Below are positions 3,648 to 35,073 of a stretch of DNA of 35,073 nucleotides, in pieces. Position 1 is the stretch's first letter; each line of letters begins with the position of its first letter. The position numbers and the translations under genes are program-made. The stretch spans positions 1-35,073 of the forward strand of contig CANRAJ010000003.1 of the NCBI GenBank assembly GCA_947628545.1, given 5' to 3'. Under the pieces are notes generated by a model that was given only the letters and a program-made list of their open reading frames with translations, searched no databases and was not told the origin of the DNA. The DNA comes from an uncultured Bacilli bacterium (GTDB taxonomy: Bacteria; Bacillota_I; Bacilli_A; RF39; UBA660).

Positions 3648-3819
3648 TACAAAGTTTAAACCCAAACCCACAAAAAATAAGGAACAATCAGATTATAAGT
3701 CATTATATATAAAAGAAAATCTGATAAAAGAAATTGAGAAGATAGCTATAGAATATAATACATCCTTTAACAATGTAGTTATTTCCATGATAGAAGAATG
3801 TTTAAAGAAGACTGAATAG
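3637..3819 (+). CDS. Small ribbon-helix-helix DNA-binding protein
   Basis: KSLYIKENLIKEIEKIA...TSFNNVVISMIE; GGGGTGA SD. Confidence 0.65.
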   Translation: MDNNTKFKPKPTKNKEQSDYKSLYIKENLIKEIEKIAIEYNTSFNNVVISMIEECLKKTE

Positions 3820-3830
3820 AGTCTTCTTTA
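3803..3830 (+). terminator. Probable terminator hairpin
   Basis: taaagaagact / agtcttcttta inverted repeat. Confidence 0.55.
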
Positions 3831-3840
3831 TATATTTTTA

Positions 3841-3869
3841 TTGAAACAAAACAAATGTTTGTGTATAAT
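3841..3869 (+). promoter_or_regulatory. Sigma-A promoter with LexA (SOS)-box-like operator in the spacer
   Basis: TTGAAA-17-TATAAT. AAAC-AAAT-GTTT at 3849-3860 resembles the Firmicutes GAAC-N4-GTTC box and precedes a Y-family polymerase. Confidence 0.65.
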
Positions 3870-3885
3870 TATATTGGTGATGAAG

Positions 3886-5376
3886 ATGGATAGAACATAT
3901 GCTTGTATAGATCTTAAAAGTTTTTATGCATCAGTTGAATGTAAAGAGCGAGGTTTAGATCCGATAACTACTAATCTTGTTGTCGCTGATAATTCTCGTA
4001 CTGATAAAACCATATGTTTAGCAGTTAGTCCATCTTTAAAAAGTTATGGCTTATCAGGTAGATCCAGATTATATGAAGTTGTACAAAAAGTTAGAAAAGT
4101 AAATAATGATAGAAAAAGAAATATTAATAATGCTAGATTTAAAGGTAAATCTTATAATGATATCGAATTAAAGAATAATAAGTATTTAGAATTAGATTAT
4201 ATTGTGGCAACACCACGCATGGCACTTTACATAAAATATAGCACTCAAATATATAATGTATATTTAAAATACTTATCACCTGATGATATATTTGTATATT
4301 CAATAGACGAAGTATTTTGTGATTTAACCAATTACTTAAAACTCTATAAGATGGAAGCTAAAGAGTTAATAACTAAAATGATACAAGATGTTTATAAAAT
4401 TACAGGTATAACTGCAACATCAGGGATAGGTACTAACATGTATTTAGCAAAAGTTGCTATGGACATTGTTGCAAAACATTCTAAACCTGATGAGTGTGGT
4501 GTTAGATTAGCCGAGTTAGACGAAATGTCTTATAGAAAGTTATTGTGGAATCATAAACCTATTACTGATTTTTGGAGAGTCGGCAGAGGTTATTCCAAAA
4601 AATTAGAAAAGCATAATATTTATACTATGGGTGATATTGCAAGGTGTTCTATTGATAATGAAGAATTATTATATAAATTATTTGGTATTAATGCAGAGTT
4701 GTTAATAGATCATGCTTGGGGTTATGAACCATGTACTATGAAGAGTATAAAATCATATAAACCCACTGTAAATTGTTTATCATCTGGACAAGTTCTTCAT
4801 TCTCCATATAATTTTGAAAAGGCTAAAATAATCGTAAGAGAAATGATAGATGTTCTATCTCTTGATTTAGTAGATAAACACTATGTTACGAATATTCTTA
4901 CATTAACTATCGGTTATGATATAGAAAATGTAAACAAAAGTGATTATAGTGGCGAGATTGTAAAAGATTTCTATGGAAGATTAATTCCTAAACCTGCTCA
5001 CGGAACAGCTAGATTAAATCATAAAACTTCATCTTCTAAAATACTTACTGATGCCTTTATGAAACTATATAGCAAAATAGTTAATCCTGAACTTACAATA
5101 AGAAGAATTAATATATCAGCTAATAATCTTATTAAAGAAGAAAATGTAAAAGAAAATGTTATATATGAGCAATTTGATATTTTTTCGGATTCTGTTCAAG
5201 TAGATAGTAAAAATAAAAAGGAAAAAATTGATGAGGCTAATGAAAAGAAAATTCAAAAAGCAATGATTAGTATAAAAAATAAATATGGTAAAAATGCAAT
5301 AGTAAAAGCGATGGATTTAGAAGAAGGAGCAACTATGATAGATAGAAATAATCAGATTGGAGGGCATAAAGCATGA
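3886..5376 (+). CDS. Y-family DNA polymerase (UmuC/ImpB/YqjW-like)
   Basis: CIDLKSFYASVEC, YSIDEVF, YLAKVAMD, C-terminal RNNQIGGH. True start probably ATG 3880 or 3886, since the track's TTG 3841 is the -35 box. Confidence 0.92.
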   Translation: MDRTYACIDLKSFYASVECKERGLDPITTNLVVADNSRTDKTICLAVSPSLKSYGLSGRSRLYEVVQKVRKVNNDRKRNINNARFKGKSYNDIELKNNKYLELDYIVATPRMALYIKYSTQIYNVYLKYLSPDDIFVYSIDEVFCDLTNYLKLYKMEAKELITKMIQDVYKITGITATSGIGTNMYLAKVAMDIVAKHSKPDECGVRLAELDEMSYRKLLWNHKPITDFWRVGRGYSKKLEKHNIYTMGDIARCSIDNEELLYKLFGINAELLIDHAWGYEPCTMKSIKSYKPTVNCLSSGQVLHSPYNFEKAKIIVREMIDVLSLDLVDKHYVTNILTLTIGYDIENVNKSDYSGEIVKDFYGRLIPKPAHGTARLNHKTSSSKILTDAFMKLYSKIVNPELTIRRINISANNLIKEENVKENVIYEQFDIFSDSVQVDSKNKKEKIDEANEKKIQKAMISIKNKYGKNAIVKAMDLEEGATMIDRNNQIGGHKA

Positions 5377-5789
5377 GTAATTATGATGATATTATTAATC
5401 TTCCACATCATGTATCAAATGTACACCCTAGAATGTCATTGTATAATAGGTCAGCGCAATTTGCTCCATTCGCTGCATTAACTGGTTATGATGATGCAAT
5501 AGTAGAAACTGCAAGACTGACTGATAAAAGAATTAATTTAGATGAAAGTTTAATTGAAATAATTAATAATAAACTGATAAATATAGAAAGTATTATTAAT
5601 GAACACCCATTAATATCAGTAACATATTTTGTAAAAGATAAGAAAAAAGATGGAGGGTCTTATATCACCATTAATGGTAATGTTAAAAGAATTGATAAAG
5701 ATAATAATTGTATAATATTAAATAACAAATCAAAAATCTCAATAGATGAAATTATCGATGTAAAATTATGTAACAATGATAGAAATTAA
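5373..5789 (+). CDS. YolD-like protein (UmuD-equivalent partner)
   Basis: YDDIINLPHHVS..HPRMS...RSAQFAPFAALTGY; coupled to the Y-family polymerase. Confidence 0.85.
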   Translation: MSNYDDIINLPHHVSNVHPRMSLYNRSAQFAPFAALTGYDDAIVETARLTDKRINLDESLIEIINNKLINIESIINEHPLISVTYFVKDKKKDGGSYITINGNVKRIDKDNNCIILNNKSKISIDEIIDVKLCNNDRN

Positions 5790-5835
5790 AAAATATTCAT
5801 AGTATAATTTTAATAGAAAGATAGAGGTAATAATT

Positions 5836-6033
5836 GTGAAATCAATATTGGACGAATCGATTTTAAAAGAGCTAGATCATTTTAATTTTAGAGGTAACGA
5901 AATTTCTATGATTATGAATAAACTATATAATAATAAGCTTAAAAATTCATTTTTATCTTTTTTGATAGAAAATCGAGGAAAAGTGATAACCATCCCAATA
6001 ATATTTAAAAAACTTAAAAATTTGGATGCATAA
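5836..6033 (+). CDS. Hypothetical protein
   Basis: GAGGT SD, GTG start, followed by a hairpin. Confidence 0.5.
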   Translation: MKSILDESILKELDHFNFRGNEISMIMNKLYNNKLKNSFLSFLIENRGKVITIPIIFKKLKNLDA

Positions 6034-6119
6034 AACATGCATTTTTTTTATACAAATTTTTTTAAATTGTTTTTCGTAAAGTGTACTTTGTTATTTTATA
6101 ATGGTTTCCGGATGAATTT

Positions 6120-6163
6120 TGCACTTTTCGTGCATTTTTCATGCACTTTTTGTGCACTTTTTA
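6120..6163 (+). repeat. 4 x 11-bp tandem direct repeat TGCA(C/T)TTTT(C/T)N
   Basis: tgcacttttcg / tgcatttttca / tgcactttttg / tgcacttttta. Confidence 0.85.
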
Positions 6164-6167
6164 TGTC

Positions 6168-6196
6168 TTGGTAAATAGAAAATGCCATGTTATAAT
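6168..6196 (+). promoter_or_regulatory. Putative sigma-A promoter heading the transfer region
   Basis: TTGGTA-17-TATAAT with extended -10 TG. Confidence 0.55.
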
Positions 6197-6396
6197 GAAG
6201 TAAAGTAGCAATAGTACGCTGAAAGAAAGGTACTAATGCTATTTTATATATTAGAAATTTCTAGAAAAACGCTTGATTTTTATTTTTTTTGTGATATTAT
6301 AAAAAACAATTAAAAATTTTAGAAACCAAGTGGAAGTAGTACATATCCATAAAGCTACTTCCATTTTTCCATCATAAGTGGGTGGGAGGATGAAAT

Positions 6397-6510
6397 ATGG
6401 TTATATATAAAGATGATTTGTTGTTTATTATAATGAAAAAGACGAATAGTAAATCAAAATTGATTGATTGGTATTATAATCTTAAAAAAACAATGGGTGT
6501 TTATCTCTAA
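6397..6510 (+). CDS. 37-aa leader/small ORF
   Basis: GGGAGGA SD; MVIYKDDLLFIIMKKTNSKSKLIDWYYNLKKTMGVYL; ends within a terminator hairpin. Confidence 0.4.
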   Translation: MVIYKDDLLFIIMKKTNSKSKLIDWYYNLKKTMGVYL

Positions 6511-17472: not shown

Positions 17473-19341
17473 ATGGAAAATATATTAACAGGTAAGCCAT
17501 CATTAGATAAACCATGGCTTAAATATTACGATGAAGAAGTATTAAATAAAAAATTACCTGAAAAAACTATATATGAATATATAGTAGATAATAATAAAAA
17601 GTTTCCAAATAGGGTTGCTTTAAATTATTTTGGTAGAAAAATTACATATGGTGAACTTATACAAAATATTGACCAAACCGCAAGAGCATTTAGAAAATAT
17701 GGAGTTAAAGAAGGTGAAATAGTAACTATTTCTATGCCTGCAATTCCAGAAGCTATATATATGTATTATGCATTAAGTAAAATTGGGGCTATTGCAAATA
17801 TGGTTGACCCAAGAACAAGTAAAGATGGTATAGAAGGTTATATTGCAGAAGCTAAATCAAAATTACTTTTTATAATTGATAGAGCAGCAGATAAAGTAAA
17901 AGACGTTAAGAAAAAAACGTCTGTTGAAAAAATAATAACGGTTTCACCAACCGATTCTTTGCCAATCGGTATAATGTTAAAAAAAGCAACTAAAGATATT
18001 AATAGCCAATATGAAGAAAGAAAAGAAAATGCTATTAAAGAAAATAAAAAAATTCCAAAAAAGAAGGATGTAATATTAGATTATTTTAAGGATATGAAAG
18101 AAAACGAAAGTGCTTTTGCTAAAAGTGGTGAATGCATTTCTTGGCCTAAGTTTTTTAAATCAGGAAAAGCACAAGATTATGAACCATATCCAAAGTATGA
18201 TAAGGATAAACCATTATTAATTGTTCATACTGGTGGAACAACGGGTCCATCAAAAGGTGTTGTACACACTAATTTTAGTGTTAACGCTGCATCATTTCAA
18301 TGCCAAAATGCAGGCTATGATTTCAAAAGAGAACATAATTGGTTAAATATAATGCCACCGTTTATAGCATATGGTATTGGTAATGGACTTCATTTACCAC
18401 TTGCGTGCGGAATGGAAGTTATATTAATTCCAGAGTTTAAAGCTGAAAAATTTGATGAATTATTATTAGAATATAAACCAAATCATATGGTTGGTGTACC
18501 ATCACATTACGGAAGCATTATTAATAGTAAAAAACTTGCTAAAGAAGATTTGTCATATATTATTGCGCCTACTGTTGGTGGTGATAAAATGGATAAAAAA
18601 TTAGAAAATAAAACAAACGAATTTTTAAAAAAGCATAATTGTGATTATAAAGTTGTTAAAGGTTATGGAATGACTGAGGTTAATGCTGCAGTTGCGGCTT
18701 GTACTTCAAATGACACTAACAAACTTGGTAGTGTAGGAATACCATTTCCTAATACGACTATATCTATTTTTGATCCAAAAACCAAAGAGGAATTAGGATA
18801 TAATAAGCAAGGTGAAGTTTGTATAACTGGTCCTAATACTATGCTAGGATATTTTAACAACGATGAAGAAACAAATAATATATTAAGAAAACATGAAGAT
18901 GGGTTAATGTGGATTCATTCGGGTGACTTAGGTTATATGGATCAAGATGGTAATTTATATGTTGTTGGTAGGTTAAAGGAAATGATAATAAGACCAGATG
19001 GATTTAAAGTTTATCCTAGTATGATAGAGGATGTCATTTTAAAACACAAGGATGTTTTAGAATGTAAAGTTGTTGGTGTAAGAGATATAAATTATTCACA
19101 AGGAAAGGTTCCAAAAGCTCATATTGTATTAAAAAGTGATAGTGTTGATACAAAAAAAGTTGAAGAAGAAATACTATTATTATGCAAAGAAAAATTGCCT
19201 GAATACTCACAACCAAGTGAAATAGAATTTAATGATAAATTACCACTTACATCAATTGGAAAAGTTGACTTCGTTAAACTAGAAAAAGACGATGAAGAAA
19301 AATTAAAATTAATATCATGTGTAAAGAAATTAAAAAGATAG
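17473..19341 (+). CDS. AMP-dependent acyl-CoA synthetase (cargo)
   Basis: HTGGTTGPSKG, GYGMTE, HSGDLG, LPLTSIGKVD. Confidence 0.92.
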   Translation: MENILTGKPSLDKPWLKYYDEEVLNKKLPEKTIYEYIVDNNKKFPNRVALNYFGRKITYGELIQNIDQTARAFRKYGVKEGEIVTISMPAIPEAIYMYYALSKIGAIANMVDPRTSKDGIEGYIAEAKSKLLFIIDRAADKVKDVKKKTSVEKIITVSPTDSLPIGIMLKKATKDINSQYEERKENAIKENKKIPKKKDVILDYFKDMKENESAFAKSGECISWPKFFKSGKAQDYEPYPKYDKDKPLLIVHTGGTTGPSKGVVHTNFSVNAASFQCQNAGYDFKREHNWLNIMPPFIAYGIGNGLHLPLACGMEVILIPEFKAEKFDELLLEYKPNHMVGVPSHYGSIINSKKLAKEDLSYIIAPTVGGDKMDKKLENKTNEFLKKHNCDYKVVKGYGMTEVNAAVAACTSNDTNKLGSVGIPFPNTTISIFDPKTKEELGYNKQGEVCITGPNTMLGYFNNDEETNNILRKHEDGLMWIHSGDLGYMDQDGNLYVVGRLKEMIIRPDGFKVYPSMIEDVILKHKDVLECKVVGVRDINYSQGKVPKAHIVLKSDSVDTKKVEEEILLLCKEKLPEYSQPSEIEFNDKLPLTSIGKVDFVKLEKDDEEKLKLISCVKKLKR

Positions 19342-19411
19342 AAAATAATTCCTATCTTTTTAATTTTTTAAAGTGTATAATTAATATAGATGTAGTAAAT
19401 AAATTTTAGGA

Positions 19412-21259
19412 GTGTTTTGTATGATAATAGGTATAACGGTTATTTGTTGTATGTTGCTTTTTAGTTTACTTGTAGGAACAATATATTTTTCAAAAGCAAA
19501 ACTTAAAAATACAGAAAATAAACTATATAGTAGGTTATTTATAATTACTTTTTTTGGACTAATAATTGAACTTTTATGTTTCTATTTTGTTTATAATAAG
19601 GATATATCAAGTATTTATAATATATTAAATGAATTTATAAATAGATTATTTTTAATTTATCTATTATTATGGGAATTTTTATTTACAGAATACATATTTT
19701 TTGTTTCTTTTGAAAGTAGATTAAAGTTTAAAGACAAATTAAAACATAATAGAAAAAGTATTTTAATTACTTTATCAATTATTTACATAATAATGGCTGC
19801 AATAATAATAAAATTACCTCTTAACTATTTTAATGATGGCAAATATATATATTCATATGGTACCGCAACAAATGTTTTATTATTAATGGGTGGTGTTTTT
19901 ATATTTATAGATATAATAAGTGTTTTATCTAATATAAAACGTGCTTCTAGCAAAAAATATTATCCATTATTTATGCTTGTTATAATGATGATTTTTGTTT
20001 TTGTAATTAGACAAATTAATCCTGGAATAACAATAATAAACTCTGTTTTTGCTTTTGTTACTATTTTTATGTATTTTACAATAGAAAATCCAGATTTAAA
20101 AGTAGTAAATGAATTATTAAGAAATAAAGAATTAGTAGAAAGACAAATGGAAGATAAATCAAGGTTTTTATTTGAAATATCACAAGATATTAAGACACCA
20201 ACAAAAAATATATTAGGGATTACTAAAAACTTTGATAAATTAGATAACGATATTGATAAAAAAGATGCGGTAAGATTAATTTCAAGTAATGCTAATGATT
20301 TACTATTTAAATTAAATAACGTACTAGATATATCATCTATGGATGCAAGTAAGATTAAAATAAAAGAAGAATATTATGATACGACTATGTTCTTTAAAAC
20401 GATTGAAAGCATGGTGCAAAATGCAATTGGAAATAAGAATATAAAATTAAAATTTGAAGTAAACAGTAACGTTCCAGAAAAACTTAATGGAGATGATGTA
20501 AAACTTAAACAAATTTTAATGTCAGTATTATTAAATAGTATTGAAAATACCGAAAATGGTTTTATAAGCGTAAACATAGGTAGTATAGTAAGGTATGATG
20601 TTGCAAGATTAGTTATAAAAATAGAAGATTCAGGAGTTGGAATGAGTCTTGATAAAATAAATAGTATATTAGACGATAATATGGAATTAACTTTAGATGA
20701 GACAAATAAACTTAATAAACTAGATATGGACTTAAAAGCAACCATTAAAGTAATAAAGTTACTTGGTGGAAGTATTAATATTAAGAGCAAAAAAGATGAA
20801 GGAACAACATTTATGATAGTATTAGATCAAAAATGTGACATTGAACAATCATCTAACTTTATGAAAAACGTAGAAAAATACTCATCTGATATATTTGGTA
20901 GAAAAAGAGTTTTATTAGTTAATGATGATAAGGAAGAAAATTTTAAGATATCAAATATTTTAGGAGAATATAACATTGATTTAAACGTATCAATGACAGG
21001 TAAAGATTGTATTGATAGGATTAATAATGGTGAGTTTTACAATCTAATAATAATAGACGATGAGCTAGGTGAAACATCTGCATTACAAACATTAAATGAA
21101 TTAAATAAAAATAATAAATTTAAAATACCAGTAATTGTTATGTTAAAAAAAGATAAAGAACATTTTAGAAAATATTATGTAGAAGATGGATTTAAGGATG
21201 TAGTTTTAAAAAGTGATCTAGTTAATGAATTAGAGATCATTATAAATAAATACATATAA
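19412..21259 (+). CDS. Membrane hybrid sensor-kinase/receiver-like protein, apparently catalytically degenerate
   Basis: ~7 TM, TIENPD, EISQDIKTP (His->Gln), DSGVGM, no G2 box, C-terminal receiver-like domain. Confidence 0.8.
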   Translation: MFCMIIGITVICCMLLFSLLVGTIYFSKAKLKNTENKLYSRLFIITFFGLIIELLCFYFVYNKDISSIYNILNEFINRLFLIYLLLWEFLFTEYIFFVSFESRLKFKDKLKHNRKSILITLSIIYIIMAAIIIKLPLNYFNDGKYIYSYGTATNVLLLMGGVFIFIDIISVLSNIKRASSKKYYPLFMLVIMMIFVFVIRQINPGITIINSVFAFVTIFMYFTIENPDLKVVNELLRNKELVERQMEDKSRFLFEISQDIKTPTKNILGITKNFDKLDNDIDKKDAVRLISSNANDLLFKLNNVLDISSMDASKIKIKEEYYDTTMFFKTIESMVQNAIGNKNIKLKFEVNSNVPEKLNGDDVKLKQILMSVLLNSIENTENGFISVNIGSIVRYDVARLVIKIEDSGVGMSLDKINSILDDNMELTLDETNKLNKLDMDLKATIKVIKLLGGSINIKSKKDEGTTFMIVLDQKCDIEQSSNFMKNVEKYSSDIFGRKRVLLVNDDKEENFKISNILGEYNIDLNVSMTGKDCIDRINNGEFYNLIIIDDELGETSALQTLNELNKNNKFKIPVIVMLKKDKEHFRKYYVEDGFKDVVLKSDLVNELEIIINKYI

Positions 21260-28857: not shown

Positions 28858-30579
28858 ATAGACATAATCAAAGCCAGAGAAGAAAGGAGAAATGGAAGAA
28901 CAATTTTCGATATGCCACTAAATGTGGTATATTATGCTCGTGTTTCGACGGATAAGGACGATCAATTAAATTCTCTTGAGAACCAATCTAAATATTTTGA
29001 GGATTATATATCAAATAATACAAGTTGGAATTATTGTGGCGCGTTTATTGACGAGGGAATAACTGGTACACAAACAAAAAATAGAAAAAATTTCTTAAAA
29101 ATGATTGATATTGCTACTTCTGGTAAAATAGACTTAATTTTAACAAAAGAAGTATCAAGATTTGCAAGAAATACAATAGATAGTTTGAGTTATACCCAAT
29201 ATTTATTAACAAAAGGTGTTATTGTTTATTTTCTATCAGATAATATAAACACGTTAGAAGAGGATTCAGAATTTAGACTAACTATGATGTCATCTCTTGC
29301 ACAAGATGAAGTTAGAAAGTTATCAGAGAGAGTTAAATTTGGTATGAATCAAAGTATAAAAAAAGGTAACATATTAGGTGGAAATATGTTAGGACTATTA
29401 AAGGTAGATAATGGTTATCAAATTATAGAAGAAGAAGCAGAAATGGTTAGAACATTATTTAATTTATACGCAACAGAGAAGTATGGATTTAGTGCTATAT
29501 CTAAAAAACTAGCAAAAATGGGTTACTTAACAAAAAAAGGTAAGCCATTTAGCACAACCTCATTAAGAGTTATTCTAACTAATCCAAAATACAAGGGATA
29601 TTATACAGCAAAAAAATCTTATGTTGAGGATTATAAAACGCATCGAAAGGTAACGATTTCAAAAGAAGAGTGGATATGTTACAAAGATCCAAGGATACCT
29701 ATTATAGTACCAGAAGAATTATGGAATTTATGTAATGAAATACATGATCGCAGAAATGAAAAGAAAAATAAGAATGTATTATCTAGACAAGATTTCATAG
29801 ATAAATCAAAGTATACATCTAAATTCATTTGTGCAGAATGTGGAGGCGTGTATTTTAGATGTTCGGGAGGAACTAGAAAGAATAATCCCAATTGGTGTTG
29901 TAGAAATTATAAACAACATGGTGTTAAATTTTGTGCTTCTCCTATACTATATGAAGATCAGTTAGATAAAATAATGAGCGATATTATAACTAATATAATA
30001 AAAAACAAAAAAAGGTATCTTGATACCTTGTTGAAAATGTATAAGGACTTAATATCGAAAAATGATATTAATGTAAATATTGATTCATACAAAGAAAAGA
30101 TTGATCACCAAAATACTATGAAAGATAAATTGTTAGAAATGTCTTTAAACGGACTAATTTCAGATGAAGAATTTAAAAGAAGAAATGAAAAATTTAATAG
30201 AGAAATCGGTGAATATGAAAAAGAAATTAGAAGTTTAAATCTTAAACAGGAAGACTTTGGCTATTATGAGAAAAAGGTAAAAACTATATCAGATTTTTTA
30301 AATACGAAATTTGATGTAAAAGAAAATATGAAATTGTTTGTTAATAAATTAATAAAAAAAGTCATTGTATCAAAAATTGATGGCGACAGAAAACACGTTA
30401 AACTTCATGTTATATTTGATTTTAATAATGAAGATTTGGACGTAGATGTTTTTCAAGAAAGAGATAGAAGATGTTGTTATAAACTAAAAATGGCAAATGG
30501 CAATGTCGAATCTATTTTTTTTGAACCAAGTTGTCCCCCGCTTACAATAAAGCAACCCTGGATTTGTAGAATTAGGTAA
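28858..30579 (+). CDS. Large serine recombinase (integrase of element 2); reads through attR; probable ATA start at 28858 (first ATG 28912)
   Basis: YARVST, DEGITGT, KEVSRFARN, NPKYKG, CAEC...C...C. Clearly paralogous to 703-2433. Confidence 0.93.
   Translation: MDIIKAREERRNGRTIFDMPLNVVYYARVSTDKDDQLNSLENQSKYFEDYISNNTSWNYCGAFIDEGITGTQTKNRKNFLKMIDIATSGKIDLILTKEVSRFARNTIDSLSYTQYLLTKGVIVYFLSDNINTLEEDSEFRLTMMSSLAQDEVRKLSERVKFGMNQSIKKGNILGGNMLGLLKVDNGYQIIEEEAEMVRTLFNLYATEKYGFSAISKKLAKMGYLTKKGKPFSTTSLRVILTNPKYKGYYTAKKSYVEDYKTHRKVTISKEEWICYKDPRIPIIVPEELWNLCNEIHDRRNEKKNKNVLSRQDFIDKSKYTSKFICAECGGVYFRCSGGTRKNNPNWCCRNYKQHGVKFCASPILYEDQLDKIMSDIITNIIKNKKRYLDTLLKMYKDLISKNDINVNIDSYKEKIDHQNTMKDKLLEMSLNGLISDEEFKRRNEKFNREIGEYEKEIRSLNLKQEDFGYYEKKVKTISDFLNTKFDVKENMKLFVNKLIKKVIVSKIDGDRKHVKLHVIFDFNNEDLDVDVFQERDRRCCYKLKMANGNVESIFFEPSCPPLTIKQPWICRIR
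30531..30557 (+). other. attR of element 2 (core AACC 30554-30557)
   Basis: ttgtcccccgcttacaataaa is inverted relative to 2682-2702; spoVD homology resumes at AAC CCT GGA TTT. Confidence 0.85.
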
Positions 30580-31417
30580 TCGTTTAGGAAAAGAAAAACT
30601 CTTTTCATACATTGATAAATTTGGTTTTGGTAAAAAAACTGGAGTTGACTTAAATGGAGAAGCTGAAGGAATAATATTTAATTTAGATAAAGTAGGTCCA
30701 GTAGAATTAGCTACTACTGCTTTTGGACAGGGTGTATCAGTTACTCCAATACAGCAAATAACCGCAGTATCAGCTGCTATAAACGGAGGCATATTATATA
30801 AACCATACATAGTAAAAAGTTTAAATGATCCAGAAACAAATTCGGTTATAAAAGAAAATAATAAAACAAAAGTAAGAAGGGTAATATCTAATGAAACATC
30901 AAAAGAAGTAAGAAGGGCTTTAGAAAGTGTTGTTACCAATGGTAGTGGAAAAAATGCTTTTATCGAAGGCTATCGTGTTGGAGGAAAAACTGGTACTGCT
31001 CAAAAAGTTGAAAACGGGGCATATTTAGTTGGAAATTATATTTTATCATTTATTGGTTTTTTGCCAGCAGATGATCCACAAATAGTAGTATATGTTGCTA
31101 TTAATAATCCTAAAAGAGTAGTTCAATATGGTGGGGTTGTATCAGCTCCTGTTGCAAAATCTATATTATTAGATTCCATTGATGCTTTAGGAATTAAAAA
31201 AAGAAATGTTTTAACTGAAAAAAAATATAATTGGAATGATAAGAAATATTATACGGTTGAAAATGTTATTGGAAAGACTCCTAAAGAGGCTGCAAAAATA
31301 TTATCAAAATATACGATTGAATATAGTGGTAGTGGTAATGTTGTAGTAGAACAATCACCAGAGGCTGGAACGAGGTTAGAAGAAACCTCAGTAGTTAGAT
31401 TAATGCTTGGTAATTAG
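30554..31417 (+). CDS. spoVD: C-terminal fragment of SpoVD (rest of the transpeptidase domain + PASTA)
   Basis: NPGFVELGNRLGKEKLF...VGPVELATTAFGQGVSVTPIQQ...GYRVGGKTGTAQK...PADDPQ...EQSPEAG. The track ORF 31061-31417 is only its tail. Confidence 0.95.
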   Translation, partial: NPGFVELGNRLGKEKLFSYIDKFGFGKKTGVDLNGEAEGIIFNLDKVGPVELATTAFGQGVSVTPIQQITAVSAAINGGILYKPYIVKSLNDPETNSVIKENNKTKVRRVISNETSKEVRRALESVVTNGSGKNAFIEGYRVGGKTGTAQKVENGAYLVGNYILSFIGFLPADDPQIVVYVAINNPKRVVQYGGVVSAPVAKSILLDSIDALGIKKRNVLTEKKYNWNDKKYYTVENVIGKTPKEAAKILSKYTIEYSGSGNVVVEQSPEAGTRLEETSVVRLMLGN

Positions 31418-31495: not shown

Positions 31496-32497
31496 GTGAA
31501 AATAGTGTTTATATTAACAAAATCTTTATTAGCACTTATGATTGGATTTATTATATCAACTACAATTGGTTATTTTTTAATACCATTATTAAAAAAATTT
31601 AACGTAGGTCAAAGAATAAGTGTTTTTGTTGCAGAGGCTCATAAGAAAAAAAATGGTGTTCCAACGATGGGAGGATTAATATTTATTATTCCCACGTTCA
31701 TAACTGTTTTAATAATGTATTTTACTAAAAAAATTAATATTAATAGTAATTTACTTATCGTATTATTCGTTTTTGTTGCTTATGCTGTTTTAGGTGCGAT
31801 AGATGATATTATTAAACTTAAGCGTAAGCAAAATGAGGGTTTAACTGAAATACAAAAACTATTTGGCCAAGTAATAATCGCAATTGTATTTTTTTACATA
31901 TATATGAAAAGTGGTTCTGAACCATTGTTATGGTTTCATGCTTTTAATCTTAAGGTTAATGTTGGATGGCTTTACGGATTTTTCATATTATTTATGTTAG
32001 TTGCATCTTCTAATGCTGTTAATATAACAGATGGGTTAGATGGTCTTGCAGGTGGGTTATCATTTATAGCATCTTTAGTACTAGGTGTAATAACTTGGAC
32101 TACAAATTGGCTTTTAGGATATGAAGATATAGCGATATTTTGCTTTATATTATCAGGCTCAATTTTAGGATTTTTAGTTTATAATACGTATCCTGCCAAA
32201 GTAATTATGGGCGATACAGGTTCTCTTTGTTTAGGTGGTGTTTTAGCAACAATTGCAATATTAATTAGAAGAGAAATTACATTTGCTATTATAATGGGTG
32301 TGTTTGTAATAGAAACATTATCTGTTATTATTCAGGTATTTTCTGTTTTAGTATTTAAAAAGAAGGTATTTTTGATGACGCCTCTTCATCACAATTTTGA
32401 AAAATTAGGTTGGAAAGAGCAAGACATTGTAAAATTATTTTGGATATGTGGCCTTATTTTAGGTACCGCCGCATTAATATATGGTGCATGGCTTTAA
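31496..32497 (+). CDS. mraY: Phospho-N-acetylmuramoyl-pentapeptide transferase
   Basis: KNGVPTMGG, DD, SNAVNITDGLDGLA, MGDTGSL, PLHHNFE. Confidence 0.96.
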   Translation: MKIVFILTKSLLALMIGFIISTTIGYFLIPLLKKFNVGQRISVFVAEAHKKKNGVPTMGGLIFIIPTFITVLIMYFTKKININSNLLIVLFVFVAYAVLGAIDDIIKLKRKQNEGLTEIQKLFGQVIIAIVFFYIYMKSGSEPLLWFHAFNLKVNVGWLYGFFILFMLVASSNAVNITDGLDGLAGGLSFIASLVLGVITWTTNWLLGYEDIAIFCFILSGSILGFLVYNTYPAKVIMGDTGSLCLGGVLATIAILIRREITFAIIMGVFVIETLSVIIQVFSVLVFKKKVFLMTPLHHNFEKLGWKEQDIVKLFWICGLILGTAALIYGAWL

Positions 32498-32593: not shown

Positions 32594-32629
32594 TAATTAG
32601 TAAAGGTTATAGGAAAGGTGTGTTTATAC

Positions 32630-33622
32630 TTGAAAAAAAAGTTTGATATAACACTTTTTATAACAATAGTGTTGACCTCAATTTATGGAATAATTATGAT
32701 TTTTTCTTCTTCTAGCATATGGGCAGAATATAAATTTAATGATAAGTATCATTATGTAATTATGCAAAGTATATTTTTTTTAATAGGACTCATTTTAATG
32801 ATTATAATAAGTAAAATACCATATACCTATTATTTAAAGAAATCAAATATGATTCTTTTTATATGTTTTATTCTTTTAATATTAGTTTTAATTCCTGGAA
32901 TAGGGACAATTAGAAATGGATCTAGAAGTTGGTTTGGTATTGGAGGATTAGGTGTACAACCTAGTGAATTTATGAAGTTAGCTTTAATCATATTTACCAG
33001 TAAATATATTTATAATAATCCAAAAGATATGAGGTCTGTTGCTAAGGGTGCTTTACCTGTTTTAATTGTAACGATGATTGCTTTTGGCCTTATTATGCTT
33101 CAGCCCGACTTTGGTACTGGAACTATTTTAGTTATGACTATTATAGCTATGTTATTTATATCAGGTGTTAATTTTTCATTTTTTATAAAAATAGGATTAT
33201 TAGGCATGGTAGCGGTAGTATTATTAGTTTTAGCAGCGCCGTATCGTGTTAATCGTATAATCTCATTTTTAAATCCATGGAGTGACCCTTTAGGAACAGG
33301 ATTTCAAGCTATTCAATCATTATATGCAATAGGTCCTGGTGGATTATTTGGTTTAGGATTTGGAGGTTCTATTCAAAAGCATTTTTATTTACCAGAACCA
33401 CAAACTGATTTTATTTTCTCTATTATATCTGAGGAGCTTGGAATCTTTGGAATTATATCTGTTGCCTTTTTATTTCTAATCATAATATTAAGATGTACGA
33501 AAATATCAGTTAAAGCACCCGATATGTTTGCTAAGTTCTTAACTTTTGGAATAATATTTCAGCTTTCATTTCAAACTTTACTTAATTTGGCAGTAGTAGT
33601 AGGTTTAATACCAGTAACAGGG
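32630..33622 (+). CDS. spoVE: SpoVE/FtsW SEDS glycosyltransferase, interrupted before the last ~35 residues
   Basis: NGSRSW, QPSEFMK, LQPDFGT, PWSDPLGTGFQ, YLPEPQTDFIF, GLIPVTG, then unrelated YALLLYS* instead of xTLPFxSYGGSS. Confidence 0.9.
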
Positions 33623-34337
33623 TATGCCCTTTTGTTGTACTCATAACTACAATCAAATTTTTCCCTTATTATAAGGGCATTCGTGAGATTATAGTAACTA
33701 GTAAATTTTATCTAAAATCTTAAAATTTGAAAAAAATATTAAAAATAGCAAAAAAATTGCAACTTTTTTTAGGGGTTACTCTCTCATTACAACATTCAAA
33801 ATAAAGCGCTTGAGCTCTATAATTTGGAGGTTATTATGGTGAGCCATATCAAAGATTTAGATATTTAATAAAATATATTGAAAATTATTATCTTCTGTCA
33901 AAGAAAATGATTATATAAATTATCCTAAAGACCGGTATTTTAGAAAATACGAAATGTAAAAATACTTTGATTATTTTTGAAAAATTATATAATAAAAAGA
34001 AGAATAGTTATACCAAGTGACATAATAGAAAGTCTTAATATACAAAAACAAGATTATATTTAAGTATTAAAAAGCGAGATTAACGGAACAAAGGCTTAAA
34101 GAAAAAATAATAATTAGGGAAAAAATAGTTAGTAGTGATTATCTATCTAGTATTGGTAAGAGTAAATATTTAAAAAAGTAAAAAAGGTATGTTTGAATAA
34201 TTGAAATGTTAATTCCGATATTATTAATGATTGATTAAATAAATTATTTATTGAAACTAAAAACAATATTTTATTTAAAAATATTGTTTTTATGATAAAT
34301 TTCTAGTATAATATGTCTCAAAAATGTGGGGAAAATT

Positions 34338-35073
34338 ATGATAAATAGATTAGAATTAAAAGACGTATTACAAAACTATCTAAATCAGAAACAAGTTGAT
34401 TTATTCCTAAATAAAAAAATCAATACTTTATACAAGTTGGGAAATATTAATAATATTGAAAAAATATTAATTATACTGAATAAATACAAATTATTAAATT
34501 TAGTTTTACTTTGTCCTAGTATTTTAGCAGTAGGAAAAAGTAAAGAAATAGAAAATATTTTAAACATATTAGAAGAAAAAAATTTATTAGACTTAGTAAA
34601 TAAATGTCCTAGTATTTTAGCAAAAGGAAAAAGTGAAGAAATAGAAAATATTTTAAACATATTAAAAGAAAAAGATATAATAAGCCTAGTAAATAAATGC
34701 CCTAATATTTTAGCAGTAGGAAAAAGTGAAGAAATAGAAAATATTTTAAACATATTAGAAGAAAAAGATTTAATAGACTTAGTAAATAAATGTCCTAGTA
34801 TTTTAGCAAAAGGGAAAAGTGAAGAAATAGAAAATATTTTAAATTTATTAAAAGAAAAAAATTTATTAGATTTATTAAAGGACTGTCCAACTATTTTAGC
34901 AGAAGGAAAAAGTAAAGAAATAGAAGATATTTTAAATTTATTAAAAGAAAAAAATTTATTAGATTTATTAAAGGATTGTCCTAATATTTTAGCAGTAGGA
35001 AAAAGTGAAGAAATAGAAAATATTTTAAATTTATTAAAAGAAAAAAATTTATTAGATTTATTAAAGGATTGTC
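34338..35073 (+). CDS. Tandem-repeat helical protein (31-aa units, mTERF-like), 3'-truncated by the window edge
   Basis: ATG34338, open to the end; unit CPSILAxGKSEEIENILNILxEKNLLDLVNK. Confidence 0.8.
   Translation, partial: MINRLELKDVLQNYLNQKQVDLFLNKKINTLYKLGNINNIEKILIILNKYKLLNLVLLCPSILAVGKSKEIENILNILEEKNLLDLVNKCPSILAKGKSEEIENILNILKEKDIISLVNKCPNILAVGKSEEIENILNILEEKDLIDLVNKCPSILAKGKSEEIENILNLLKEKNLLDLLKDCPTILAEGKSKEIEDILNLLKEKNLLDLLKDCPNILAVGKSEEIENILNLLKEKNLLDLLKDC
34512..35073 (+). repeat. 93-bp tandem repeat, 6 full copies plus the start of a 7th
   Basis: Cys codons at 34512, 34605, 34698, 34791, 34884, 34977, 35070. Confidence 0.95.

Follow-up and report, generated by a model that had tools for sequence, protein, structure and literature searches.

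The stretch analyzed here (the window) is the whole of contig CANRAJ010000003.1 (35,073 bases; C3 below), which was binned with an uncultured member of the Bacilli (order RF39) in an assembly of 1.10 Mb and 104 contigs, the shortest of at least 2.5 kb. At its right end the plus strand carries, in order, a gene for a large serine recombinase (LSR), the 3′ piece of spoVD, mraY, and a SEDS gene of the spoVE type that starts at 32618 and is cut off near its 3′ end. Between the two interrupted cortex genes, mraY (31496..32497, plus strand; Pfam Glycos_transf_4) is an intact 333-aa open frame with 88 to 90% identity to its orthologues, as the original prediction for this DNA had stated. We argue that positions 33620-33621 are likely the left attachment site (attL) of an LSR-family element integrated in spoVE, and that excision of this element, linked to sporulation, would restore the gene.

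The 5′ piece of the SEDS gene comprises 335 codons, through the Gly of the motif PVTG (32618..33622, plus strand), and matches Pfam PF01098 with an E value of 1.5e-97 over profile positions 4 to 331 of 356 (4 to 332 in the search of its own genome). The open reading frame (ORF) itself is 342 aa long (32618..33646) and ends ...GLIPVTG YALLLYS*; the last seven codons, YALLLYS, and the stop (33623..33646, plus strand) form a foreign tail that is identical in four related loci (L039, L052, L064, and L087). Intact orthologues read VTLPFFSYGGSS after PVTG, encode the final membrane helix, and terminate about 29 codons farther on. We sampled the 80 best SpoVE loci, with one genome per species, and in 63 of them the frame goes on with [VI]TLPFxSYGG[ST]S and about 20 more residues, the last membrane helix, before the stop. 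Homology to the DNA of 16 intact orthologues ends after the GGG at 33622, where the orthologues read GTTACNCTNCC and the window TATGCCC. The range of the PF01098 match and this DNA comparison both confirm the original prediction that spoVE homology is lost after this GGG, with the motif and the last helix gone.

Among NCBIfam models, spoVE (TIGR02615) gave the window piece its best score (394.7 bits, versus 343.8 for ftsW and 264.6 for rodA). The cut-off of the spoVE model is 448.8 bits; the truncated window piece lies below it, an intact orthologue at L017 just under it (445.6), and an intact copy on contig C56 of the bin passes (449.0), while all three also exceed the ftsW cut-off of 337.5. 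For the remaining two SEDS genes in the bin, the best models are ftsW (C95) and rodA (C39). By best model scores and synteny, we identify the cut gene as the SpoVE equivalent. The ratio of nonsynonymous to synonymous substitution rates (dN/dS) between the window's 5′ piece and intact orthologues is about 0.06; a pair of intact genes gives 0.05, and the split alleles of L108 and L109 (SpoVE 90% and LSR 88% identical) give 0.08. These values fit a gene still under selection, and a recent insertion would look alike.

The break has the structure of an LSR attachment site. In the consensus of the 63 intact loci, the bacterial site (attB) reads GTAGGATTAATTCCAGTAACA-GG-AGTTACTTTACCATTTTTATC, with codon positions 1 and 2 at least 90% conserved, and it contains a 6-bp inverted repeat, AGTAAC-A-GG-A-GTTACT, that is symmetric about the first two bases (G1G2) of the Gly codon. 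The element's site (attP), rebuilt from L109, reads AAAAGGGCAAAG-GG-GGTTGCCCTTTT and is symmetric about the same GG. The core is GG in all of the attL sites (11 of 11) and right attachment sites (attR; 18 of 18) that were compared. A two-bp crossover is thus common to attL and attR, and attB and attP are imperfect dyads about that core, both of which are expected of LSR attachment sites. In the window, the B arm, or host half of the site (33599..33619, ...CCAGTAACA), matches the left half of the attB consensus. It is followed by GG (33620..33621), the first two bases of the Gly codon and the presumed crossover dinucleotide given the GG core and the symmetry center of attB and attP, and then by the P′ arm, G-TATGCCCTTTTGTTGTACTCATAAC (also written G-TATGCCCTTTT; TATGCCCTTTTG), which starts at 33622 and opens the left end of the element. 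Its reverse complement corresponds to the P arms, AAA(A)GGGCA, that adjoin the LSR gene in L109, L113, and L121. Because no window base after 33622 matches the host, the core must be either G1G2 or the second and third bases of the codon. The dyad symmetry selects G1G2 and places the crossover at 33620-33621, in keeping with 33622 being the wobble base and 33623 already foreign. A rejoined attB would read ...CCAGTAACAGG joined to NGTTACNCTNCCNTT, and the attP of joined element ends would consist of a AAAGGGCA-type P arm, GG, and the TATGCCCTTTTG P′ arm.

The original prediction had seen an LSR site in an imperfect dyad across the junction. Its arms, 33593-33608 and the reverse complement of 33635-33650, do match at 10 of 16 positions, but a match of at least 10 of 16, with the arm distance free, occurs at 7.5% of 3000 random centers in the window, and we rejected this dyad as evidence because the match is at chance level. 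It sets a host arm against an element arm of a hybrid attL, where symmetry is not required; the true axes, those of attB and attP, are centered on 33620-33621, one base to the left of the center proposed earlier.

Insertion at this site is common. Besides the 63 intact loci, the sample of 80 contained 14 that are interrupted at the site, two whose contigs end exactly there, and one whose contig ends earlier. All 14 interruptions fall at the same dinucleotide, with at least seven different left ends, and every 5′ piece is open. Because the gene is so often found interrupted, we infer that this SEDS gene is nonessential for growth.

The DNA to the right of the break recurs in other hosts. When window positions 33623-35073 were compared by blastn with all fetched loci, identity was 100% over 59 to 74 nt in L039, L052, L064, and L087, which belong to four other species with SpoVE 63 to 68% identical to that of the window and whose contigs all end there. 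Weaker matches to the left end were found in L090 (80% over 222 nt), L042 (74% over 179 nt), and L011, from a genome of the bin's own genus (87.5% over 56 nt). The DNA shared with the postjunction DNA of other species (33622..33843) is the left end of the inserted element, P′ arm first. Judging from these matches, one mobile element or a family of close kin occupies an identical position in multiple hosts, with the left end shared by elements of at least six other species, and this argues strongly against both a simple truncation and an assembly chimera. An exact-pattern scan of metagenome contigs with the P′ arm of the element gave 0 matches.

More than 1.45 kb of the element is visible in the window. 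Beyond the foreign tail, 33647..34325 is AT rich (G+C content of 21%, versus 28% in the gene) and contains no ORF of at least 40 aa, and a scan of 33500-34400 against Rfam gave no match at E values up to 0.1. A short inverted repeat, CCCTTAT.ATAAGGG, lies at 33663-33677, some 45 nt into the element, and has counterparts in the related left ends of L042, L090, and L027; it may act as a terminator or as another site for a protein. The remainder (34326..35073, plus strand) is a cargo ORF built from repeats of 31 residues (consensus like LLDLVNKCPSILAKGKSEEIENILNILKEKN); it has weak Pfam matches to mTERF and DUF3791 and runs off the contig end. The repeats are encoded by a 93-nt tandem array (34512-35065; 6.0 copies at 90%) that probably broke the assembly.

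Complete relatives of the element, with both junctions on one contig, were found in four genomes. They measure 10,213 bp (L108, genome G045), 11,202 bp (L109, G046), 11,681 bp (L101, G041), and 2,750 bp (L078, G049; 3752-6502), and all four have the same layout: the spoVE 5′ piece to PVTG, variable cargo, a small conserved ORF, the LSR gene as the last gene, about 70 to 120 nt that include the P arm, GG, and a 3′ piece with the last 29 or so spoVE codons, from [VI]TLPF.SYGGSS to the normal stop. The recombinases are 533 to 539 aa long, and the three that were scanned (L101, L108, and L109) contain Resolvase, Recombinase, and Zn_ribbon_recom domains. Joining the two gene pieces at GG in silico gave, in all four cases, an open frame of 364 to 371 aa that aligns end to end with intact orthologues at 75 to 87% identity. 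The shortest element carries a RelB antitoxin, a ParE-type toxin, a small ORF, the LSR gene, and nothing else, and can be described as an addiction cassette plus a recombination unit.

The recombinases of these elements form a group with a single, sharply defined target. When 301 genomes of the bin's order were searched with the L109 LSR, 165 contained a match at E values up to 1e-80. The family is very rich in LSR genes, with up to 34 first-look candidates in one genome. For the best 30 loci of the search, we asked what follows the recombinase. Where the LSR was at least 45.8% identical to that of L109, a spoVE 3′ piece was found 66 to 118 nt past the LSR stop codon in 14 of 16 loci, and all 14 of these pieces keep the motif; the remaining two are L122, which has no downstream DNA, and L125, which has other DNA (an Rfam scan of the DNA downstream of the L125 LSR gave no match). 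Where the LSR was at most 40% identical, none of the 14 loci carried a spoVE 3′ piece. In a maximum likelihood tree of 33 rows (quick search only; L115, L116, L122, and L129 were dropped as truncated or stop containing), the spoVE-linked recombinases formed one clade of 17 rows with a Shimodaira-Hasegawa-like approximate likelihood ratio test (SH-aLRT) support of 100, and this clade included the exception, L125. On the basis of these sequence comparisons, we identify the attB of the spoVE-clade LSRs as the DNA that codes for the invariant PVTG|VTLPF motif of SpoVE. The original prediction had proposed to look downstream for an LSR gene followed by GG and VTLPF codons: this arrangement was not found in the bin, and it is present in the complete homologous elements elsewhere and in 14 of the 16 loci with spoVE-clade recombinases.

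Joined-ends forms of related elements were detected in metagenomes. Six loci of the spoVE clade (L141 to L146) were recovered by scanning with the LSR alignment. Three of these (L141, L144, and L145) have the LSR gene, attR, and a spoVE 3′ piece, and L146 has no downstream DNA. In L142 (4114-4380) and L143 (4105-4365), the LSR gene is followed by a P arm, GG, and the left end of an element, with no spoVE fragment; the DNA after GG is 90% (L142) and 86% (L143) identical over 196 nt to the left end at the attL of L084. We identify the sequences in L142 and L143 as natural attP sites, the joined-ends form, which was thus seen in two of the five assessable metagenome loci. In L142, a type IV coupling protein gene, a small ORF, and the LSR gene lie in a row on a 40-kb contig labeled with 68x coverage, which may be a circle or a free replicon.

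A small ORF of 44 to 82 aa is conserved just upstream of the LSR gene in 11 aligned loci, with the core K..V.F.F...G..LK.IL, and the same peptide occurs in L078 and L114, outside our stricter filter. It matched no Pfam family (best E value, 0.003), and no homologue was found in the window by hmmsearch (best E value, 0.03). A model of the complex between the L109 LSR and the small protein had an interface score (ipSAE) of 0.68, compared with 0.00 for the best of three controls; 58 of 80 solved complexes attain this mark, as do 2 of 110 mismatched pairs, counts that hold only roughly here, as our own alignments were used. The model runs share at least 82% of contacts, and the predicted local distance difference test (pLDDT) score of the partner was at least 63. 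The modeled interface involves LSR residues 365-409 and 468-529, in the C-terminal part of the protein, the part on which directionality factors of other LSRs act. The strand V.F.F.F of the small protein resembles the C-terminal LSR strand V.VYFKF, and the two were modeled edge to edge (LSR 518-526 with small protein 10-17). The model supports binding of the small protein to the LSR, and we regard the ORF as a candidate directionality factor.

The element in spoVE is not alone at this locus. Two breaks also interrupt spoVD, one at each of its catalytic motifs SxxK (STFK) and SxN (SCN|PG), and each downstream piece is preceded by an LSR gene, in agreement with the original prediction that the insertion in spoVE is the third element of the locus and of the LSR type. 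The first spoVD-linked LSR gene (703-2433) is followed directly by the middle piece of spoVD (2507-2695; residues ~293-355). The second (28912..30579, plus strand; Pfam Resolvase, Recombinase, and Zn_ribbon_recom) overlaps at its end with the 3′ piece (30551..31417, plus strand; residues ~349-636, about 288 codons), which is 91 to 94% identical by tblastn to the intact penicillin-binding proteins (PBPs) of L019, L021, and L025 and has spoVD_pbp (TIGR02214) as its best NCBIfam model. The two recombinases are 42% identical to each other and pair together in the tree, far from the spoVE clade, to whose members the second is only 22 to 24% identical. The element of about 28 kb between the spoVD pieces, to which the second LSR gene belongs, encodes a MobL relaxase, a coupling protein, a VirB4-like ATPase, an M23 peptidase, a sortase, and a SpaA-type adhesin; we consider it conjugative because of the relaxase, coupling protein, VirB4-like ATPase, sortase, and adhesin. 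It also contains genes for an AMP-binding enzyme and a hybrid histidine kinase/response regulator (17473-21259) that recur as a pair (75% and 71% identical) at L021 8008-11951, within the spoVE element of genome G041. The G041 element retains, in addition, a remnant of the C terminus of a coupling protein. From these sequences, recombination units seem to have been swapped between related backbones. Part of PMC6957869 describes how a recombination unit can move between kinds of mobile element.

Further targets came from the more distant recombinases. In six of the 14 loci with LSRs at most 40% identical to that of L109, the next gene, by motif, is a spoIVA 3′ piece; the two that were scanned were confirmed by NCBIfam TIGR02836, with a start near residue 120. 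spoIVA split near this residue was seen at L110 (G041:C5:21000-38000), in G045 (C75/C9), and at L128, L129, L134, and L136 to L138. The spoIVA-linked recombinases are 34 to 38% identical to the spoVE clade and form a separate clade in the tree (6 rows; SH-aLRT support of 100). The spoIVA insert of G041 is about 13.7 kb, and its LSR gene abuts the 3′ piece. At L132 (G256:C29:9604-13399), another of these 14 loci, the DNA directly after the LSR gene encodes the last ~466 residues of a Ca-type P-type ATPase, starting just before the phosphorylation motif DKTGTLT, and this motif may be a further conserved-motif target. According to part of PMC517825, spoVD, spoVE, and spoIVA of Bacillus subtilis are mother-cell genes that are controlled by sigma-E and needed for the cortex.

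The host genes on C3 do not resemble those of the rest of the bin. A second PBP-mraY pair, with 64% nucleotide identity, lies on C24 (9400-11282), and a separate, intact spoVE-type gene is found on C56 (6517-7608), with 61% amino acid identity to the window copy, for a total of four SEDS genes (window copy included), compared with three in each relative. The window SpoVE is 58 to 63% identical to those of genomes of the bin's genus, versus 82 to 89% to the intact orthologues of other genomes; overall, the window's host genes are 82 to 94% identical to genes of genomes outside that genus, and their G+C content is 28% on C3, versus 32 to 35%. Contig C3 was therefore probably misbinned, its host genes coming from another genus than the rest of the bin. 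spoVE, mraY, and spoVD are all codirectional in the window, L019, and L021, and in L017 and L025 (5998-8802), which are among the closest intact orthologue loci, spoVE is on the strand opposite mraY and spoVD. This strand difference may reflect an inversion around a recombination-prone locus.

Genomes in this group are 1.0 to 1.3 Mb, which is unusually small for endospore formers. Spo0A_C and SpoIVA were found in five of five genomes tested (G000, G041, G045, G046, and G050; the Spo0A match in G000 is a fragment at a contig start), and for this reason we regard these ~1.1-Mb genomes as those of spore formers.

We propose that the window element continues past the contig end to an LSR gene of the spoVE clade and attR. 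By analogy with skin, SPbeta, and gin, the LSR and a directionality factor would excise the element in the terminally differentiating mother cell, restoring spoVE in time for cortex synthesis, and the forespore chromosome would keep the element. Since two other LSR elements interrupt spoVD nearby, three separate excisions would be required before this organism could make its cortex. It is from this analogy that we infer sporulation-timed excision of the window element.

The comparison with known systems is close. Sporulation genes reported as interrupted include sigK, spoVFB, spoVR, spsM, gerE, kamA, and yabG, and the elements include skin in sigK, SPbeta in spsM, vfbin in spoVFB, vrin in spoVR, gin in gerE, and yin in yabG (in parts of PMC4191935, PMC5595907, PMC6957869, and PMC10747680). 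As with elements of the skin, SPbeta, and gin type, the break in the window is inside a sporulation gene, as judged by the best-scoring model, spoVE, whose B. subtilis counterpart acts in the mother cell. In the skin element of sigK, found in B. subtilis (recombinase SpoIVCA) and also in Clostridioides difficile, the LSR gene likewise lies at the end of the element beside an attachment site inside a mother-cell gene, and precise excision restores the frame (parts of PMC4191935, PMC5595907, and PMC6957869). The spoVE elements differ from skin in that their target is a membrane enzyme rather than a sigma factor, their cargo is variable rather than prophage-like, and a neighboring element in the window is conjugative. 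The gin element in gerE of Bacillus cereus ATCC 10987 is a small nonprophage element with little beyond a recombination unit (part of PMC5595907), and the L078 element is of the same minimal kind; the target gene is different, however, and the window element is larger (with more than 1.45 kb visible); the likeness drawn here is one of layout. SPbeta in spsM uses the LSR SprA and a small separate directionality factor, SprB (parts of PMC4191935 and PMC5499854). Here, a small ORF with modeled binding precedes the LSR gene, but it has no detectable family and is likened to SprB by its position and modeled binding, and no phage genes were seen. On every point that can be checked in sequence, the spoVE case matches the known intervening elements, the recombinase beside the attachment site and the frame rebuilt by joining being those of its complete relatives. 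None of spoVE, spoVD, and spoIVA is mentioned in the main text of PMC4191935, PMC5595907, or PMC6957869 (supplements being outside this scope), and we found no literature linking any of the three genes to such elements in a search whose coverage excluded subscription journals.

Several observations weigh against our interpretation. A six-frame motif search for a spoVE 3′ piece in all 104 contigs of the bin found only the intact C56 copy, and tblastn found no spoVE-clade LSR in the bin (best, 35 to 37% over about 200 residues on C65). Among 20 sequencing runs, used as assembled Logan contigs, four from one sample contain a fraction of 0.91 of the words; neither a rejoined allele nor a loose end at 33622 was among the matches listed for four runs, whose cover is missing over parts of 33675-33860. 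Such contigs drop rare variants, so that this result carries no weight on excision. No sporulation-type (sigma-E/sigma-K-like) promoter was established upstream of the LSR gene and small ORF by inspection by eye of this AT-rich DNA. A CATA-containing stretch is conserved 5′ of the small ORF in L101, L108, and L109 and absent from the L078 subgroup; it does not fit the sigma-E or sigma-K consensus, and we base no promoter claim on it. The L125 LSR belongs to the spoVE clade, yet lacks a spoVE piece downstream. The attP contigs may represent free replicons and not excision products. The orthology to SpoVE rests on model scores and synteny, with L017 below the spoVE cut-off and the ftsW cut-off also passed, and the low dN/dS of the window's 5′ piece is expected equally from a recent insertion. 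The lack of a 3′ piece and of a clade LSR in the bin says little, as does the lack of a continuing contig in a blastn search with the right end of C3, because the contig ends in a repeat array and is probably foreign to the bin. For the same reason, the lack of any 3′ spoVE piece in the genome, which the original prediction had named as a sign of simple truncation, was indeed found in the bin but carries little weight at this contig end.

An alternative hypothesis is that these insertions are dead ends or purely parasitic, with spoVE a mere conserved landing pad that is dispensable in growth, and that excision, if any, serves the elements' own transfer; the interrupted host would be cortex deficient, or another SEDS protein would substitute. 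Excision and its timing are argued by analogy for every member, each genome has two further SEDS paralogues, the L078 element with only its toxin-antitoxin pair, small ORF, and LSR gene looks like a selfish design, and related elements carry conjugation genes. We nevertheless consider this hypothesis unlikely: all 5′ pieces are open in the 14 of 80 species-level loci with insertions, all 14 of the 3′ pieces beside an LSR gene keep the motif, dN/dS between split alleles is 0.08, and the targets of the related clades, spoVE, spoVD, and spoIVA, are all mother-cell genes in B. subtilis, which is the signature of excision-restored genes (in parts of PMC4191935 and PMC517825). It is still less probable, and we would give it very little credence, that the window holds just the left end of an old element whose recombinase was deleted along with the spoVE 3′ end, leaving a plain pseudogene. 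The bin does lack a clade LSR and a 3′ piece, and some 700 nt past the junction contain no ORF of at least 40 aa; on the other hand, the left end matches those of four other species at 100% identity, a sign of recent spread, the 5′ piece has neither a stop nor relaxed constraint, the contig simply ends in a repeat array, and bin-wide absence has no weight for a contig that is probably foreign to the bin. A chimera in which spoVE was wrongly joined to unrelated AT-rich DNA is the least probable explanation, and we give it almost no credence. This is a metagenome assembly, the word depth in the probable source runs is 12.4 on the host side and 24.8 on the element side, and Logan contigs break 15 to 22 nt past the junction. 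Such a depth step and such breaks are expected, however, of an element present in several hosts. The misassembly that the original prediction had allowed for is counted out by the base-identical junction in four independent assemblies of other species and by a Logan contig of the source sample that spans 33000 to 33644, crossing the junction by 22 nt.

Sporulation-linked excision of an element integrated at the PVTG|VTLPF codons remains the explanation that we favor, and it would add spoVE to the sporulation genes that are rebuilt by excision. The data also reveal a recombinase clade with a sharply defined, protein-constrained target, a high prevalence of insertion (14 of 80 loci), elements that range from a 2.75-kb addiction cassette to conjugative ones, and a candidate directionality factor that belongs to none of the known families. 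The attB/attP pairs, like the small protein that partners the LSR, could find use as orthogonal integrase tools.

More broadly, we speculate, with considerable doubt, that the mobilome of these ~1.1-Mb gut spore formers, its conjugative elements among them, lies mainly inside mother-cell sporulation genes, with each LSR clade tuned to one invariant catalytic motif, that the three insertions in spoVD and spoVE act as a three-lock switch for the cortex, and that excised circles are the main moment of transfer. If this is true, the motifs of the LSR clades would be PVTG|VTLPF in SpoVE, SxxK and SxN in SpoVD, and the region near residue 120 in SpoIVA, and gene flow would be coupled to sporulation through circles excised in the doomed mother cell, among them a complete conjugative element. 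The findings are relevant to how gut commensals that form spores and have minimal genomes tolerate mobile DNA, or exploit it.

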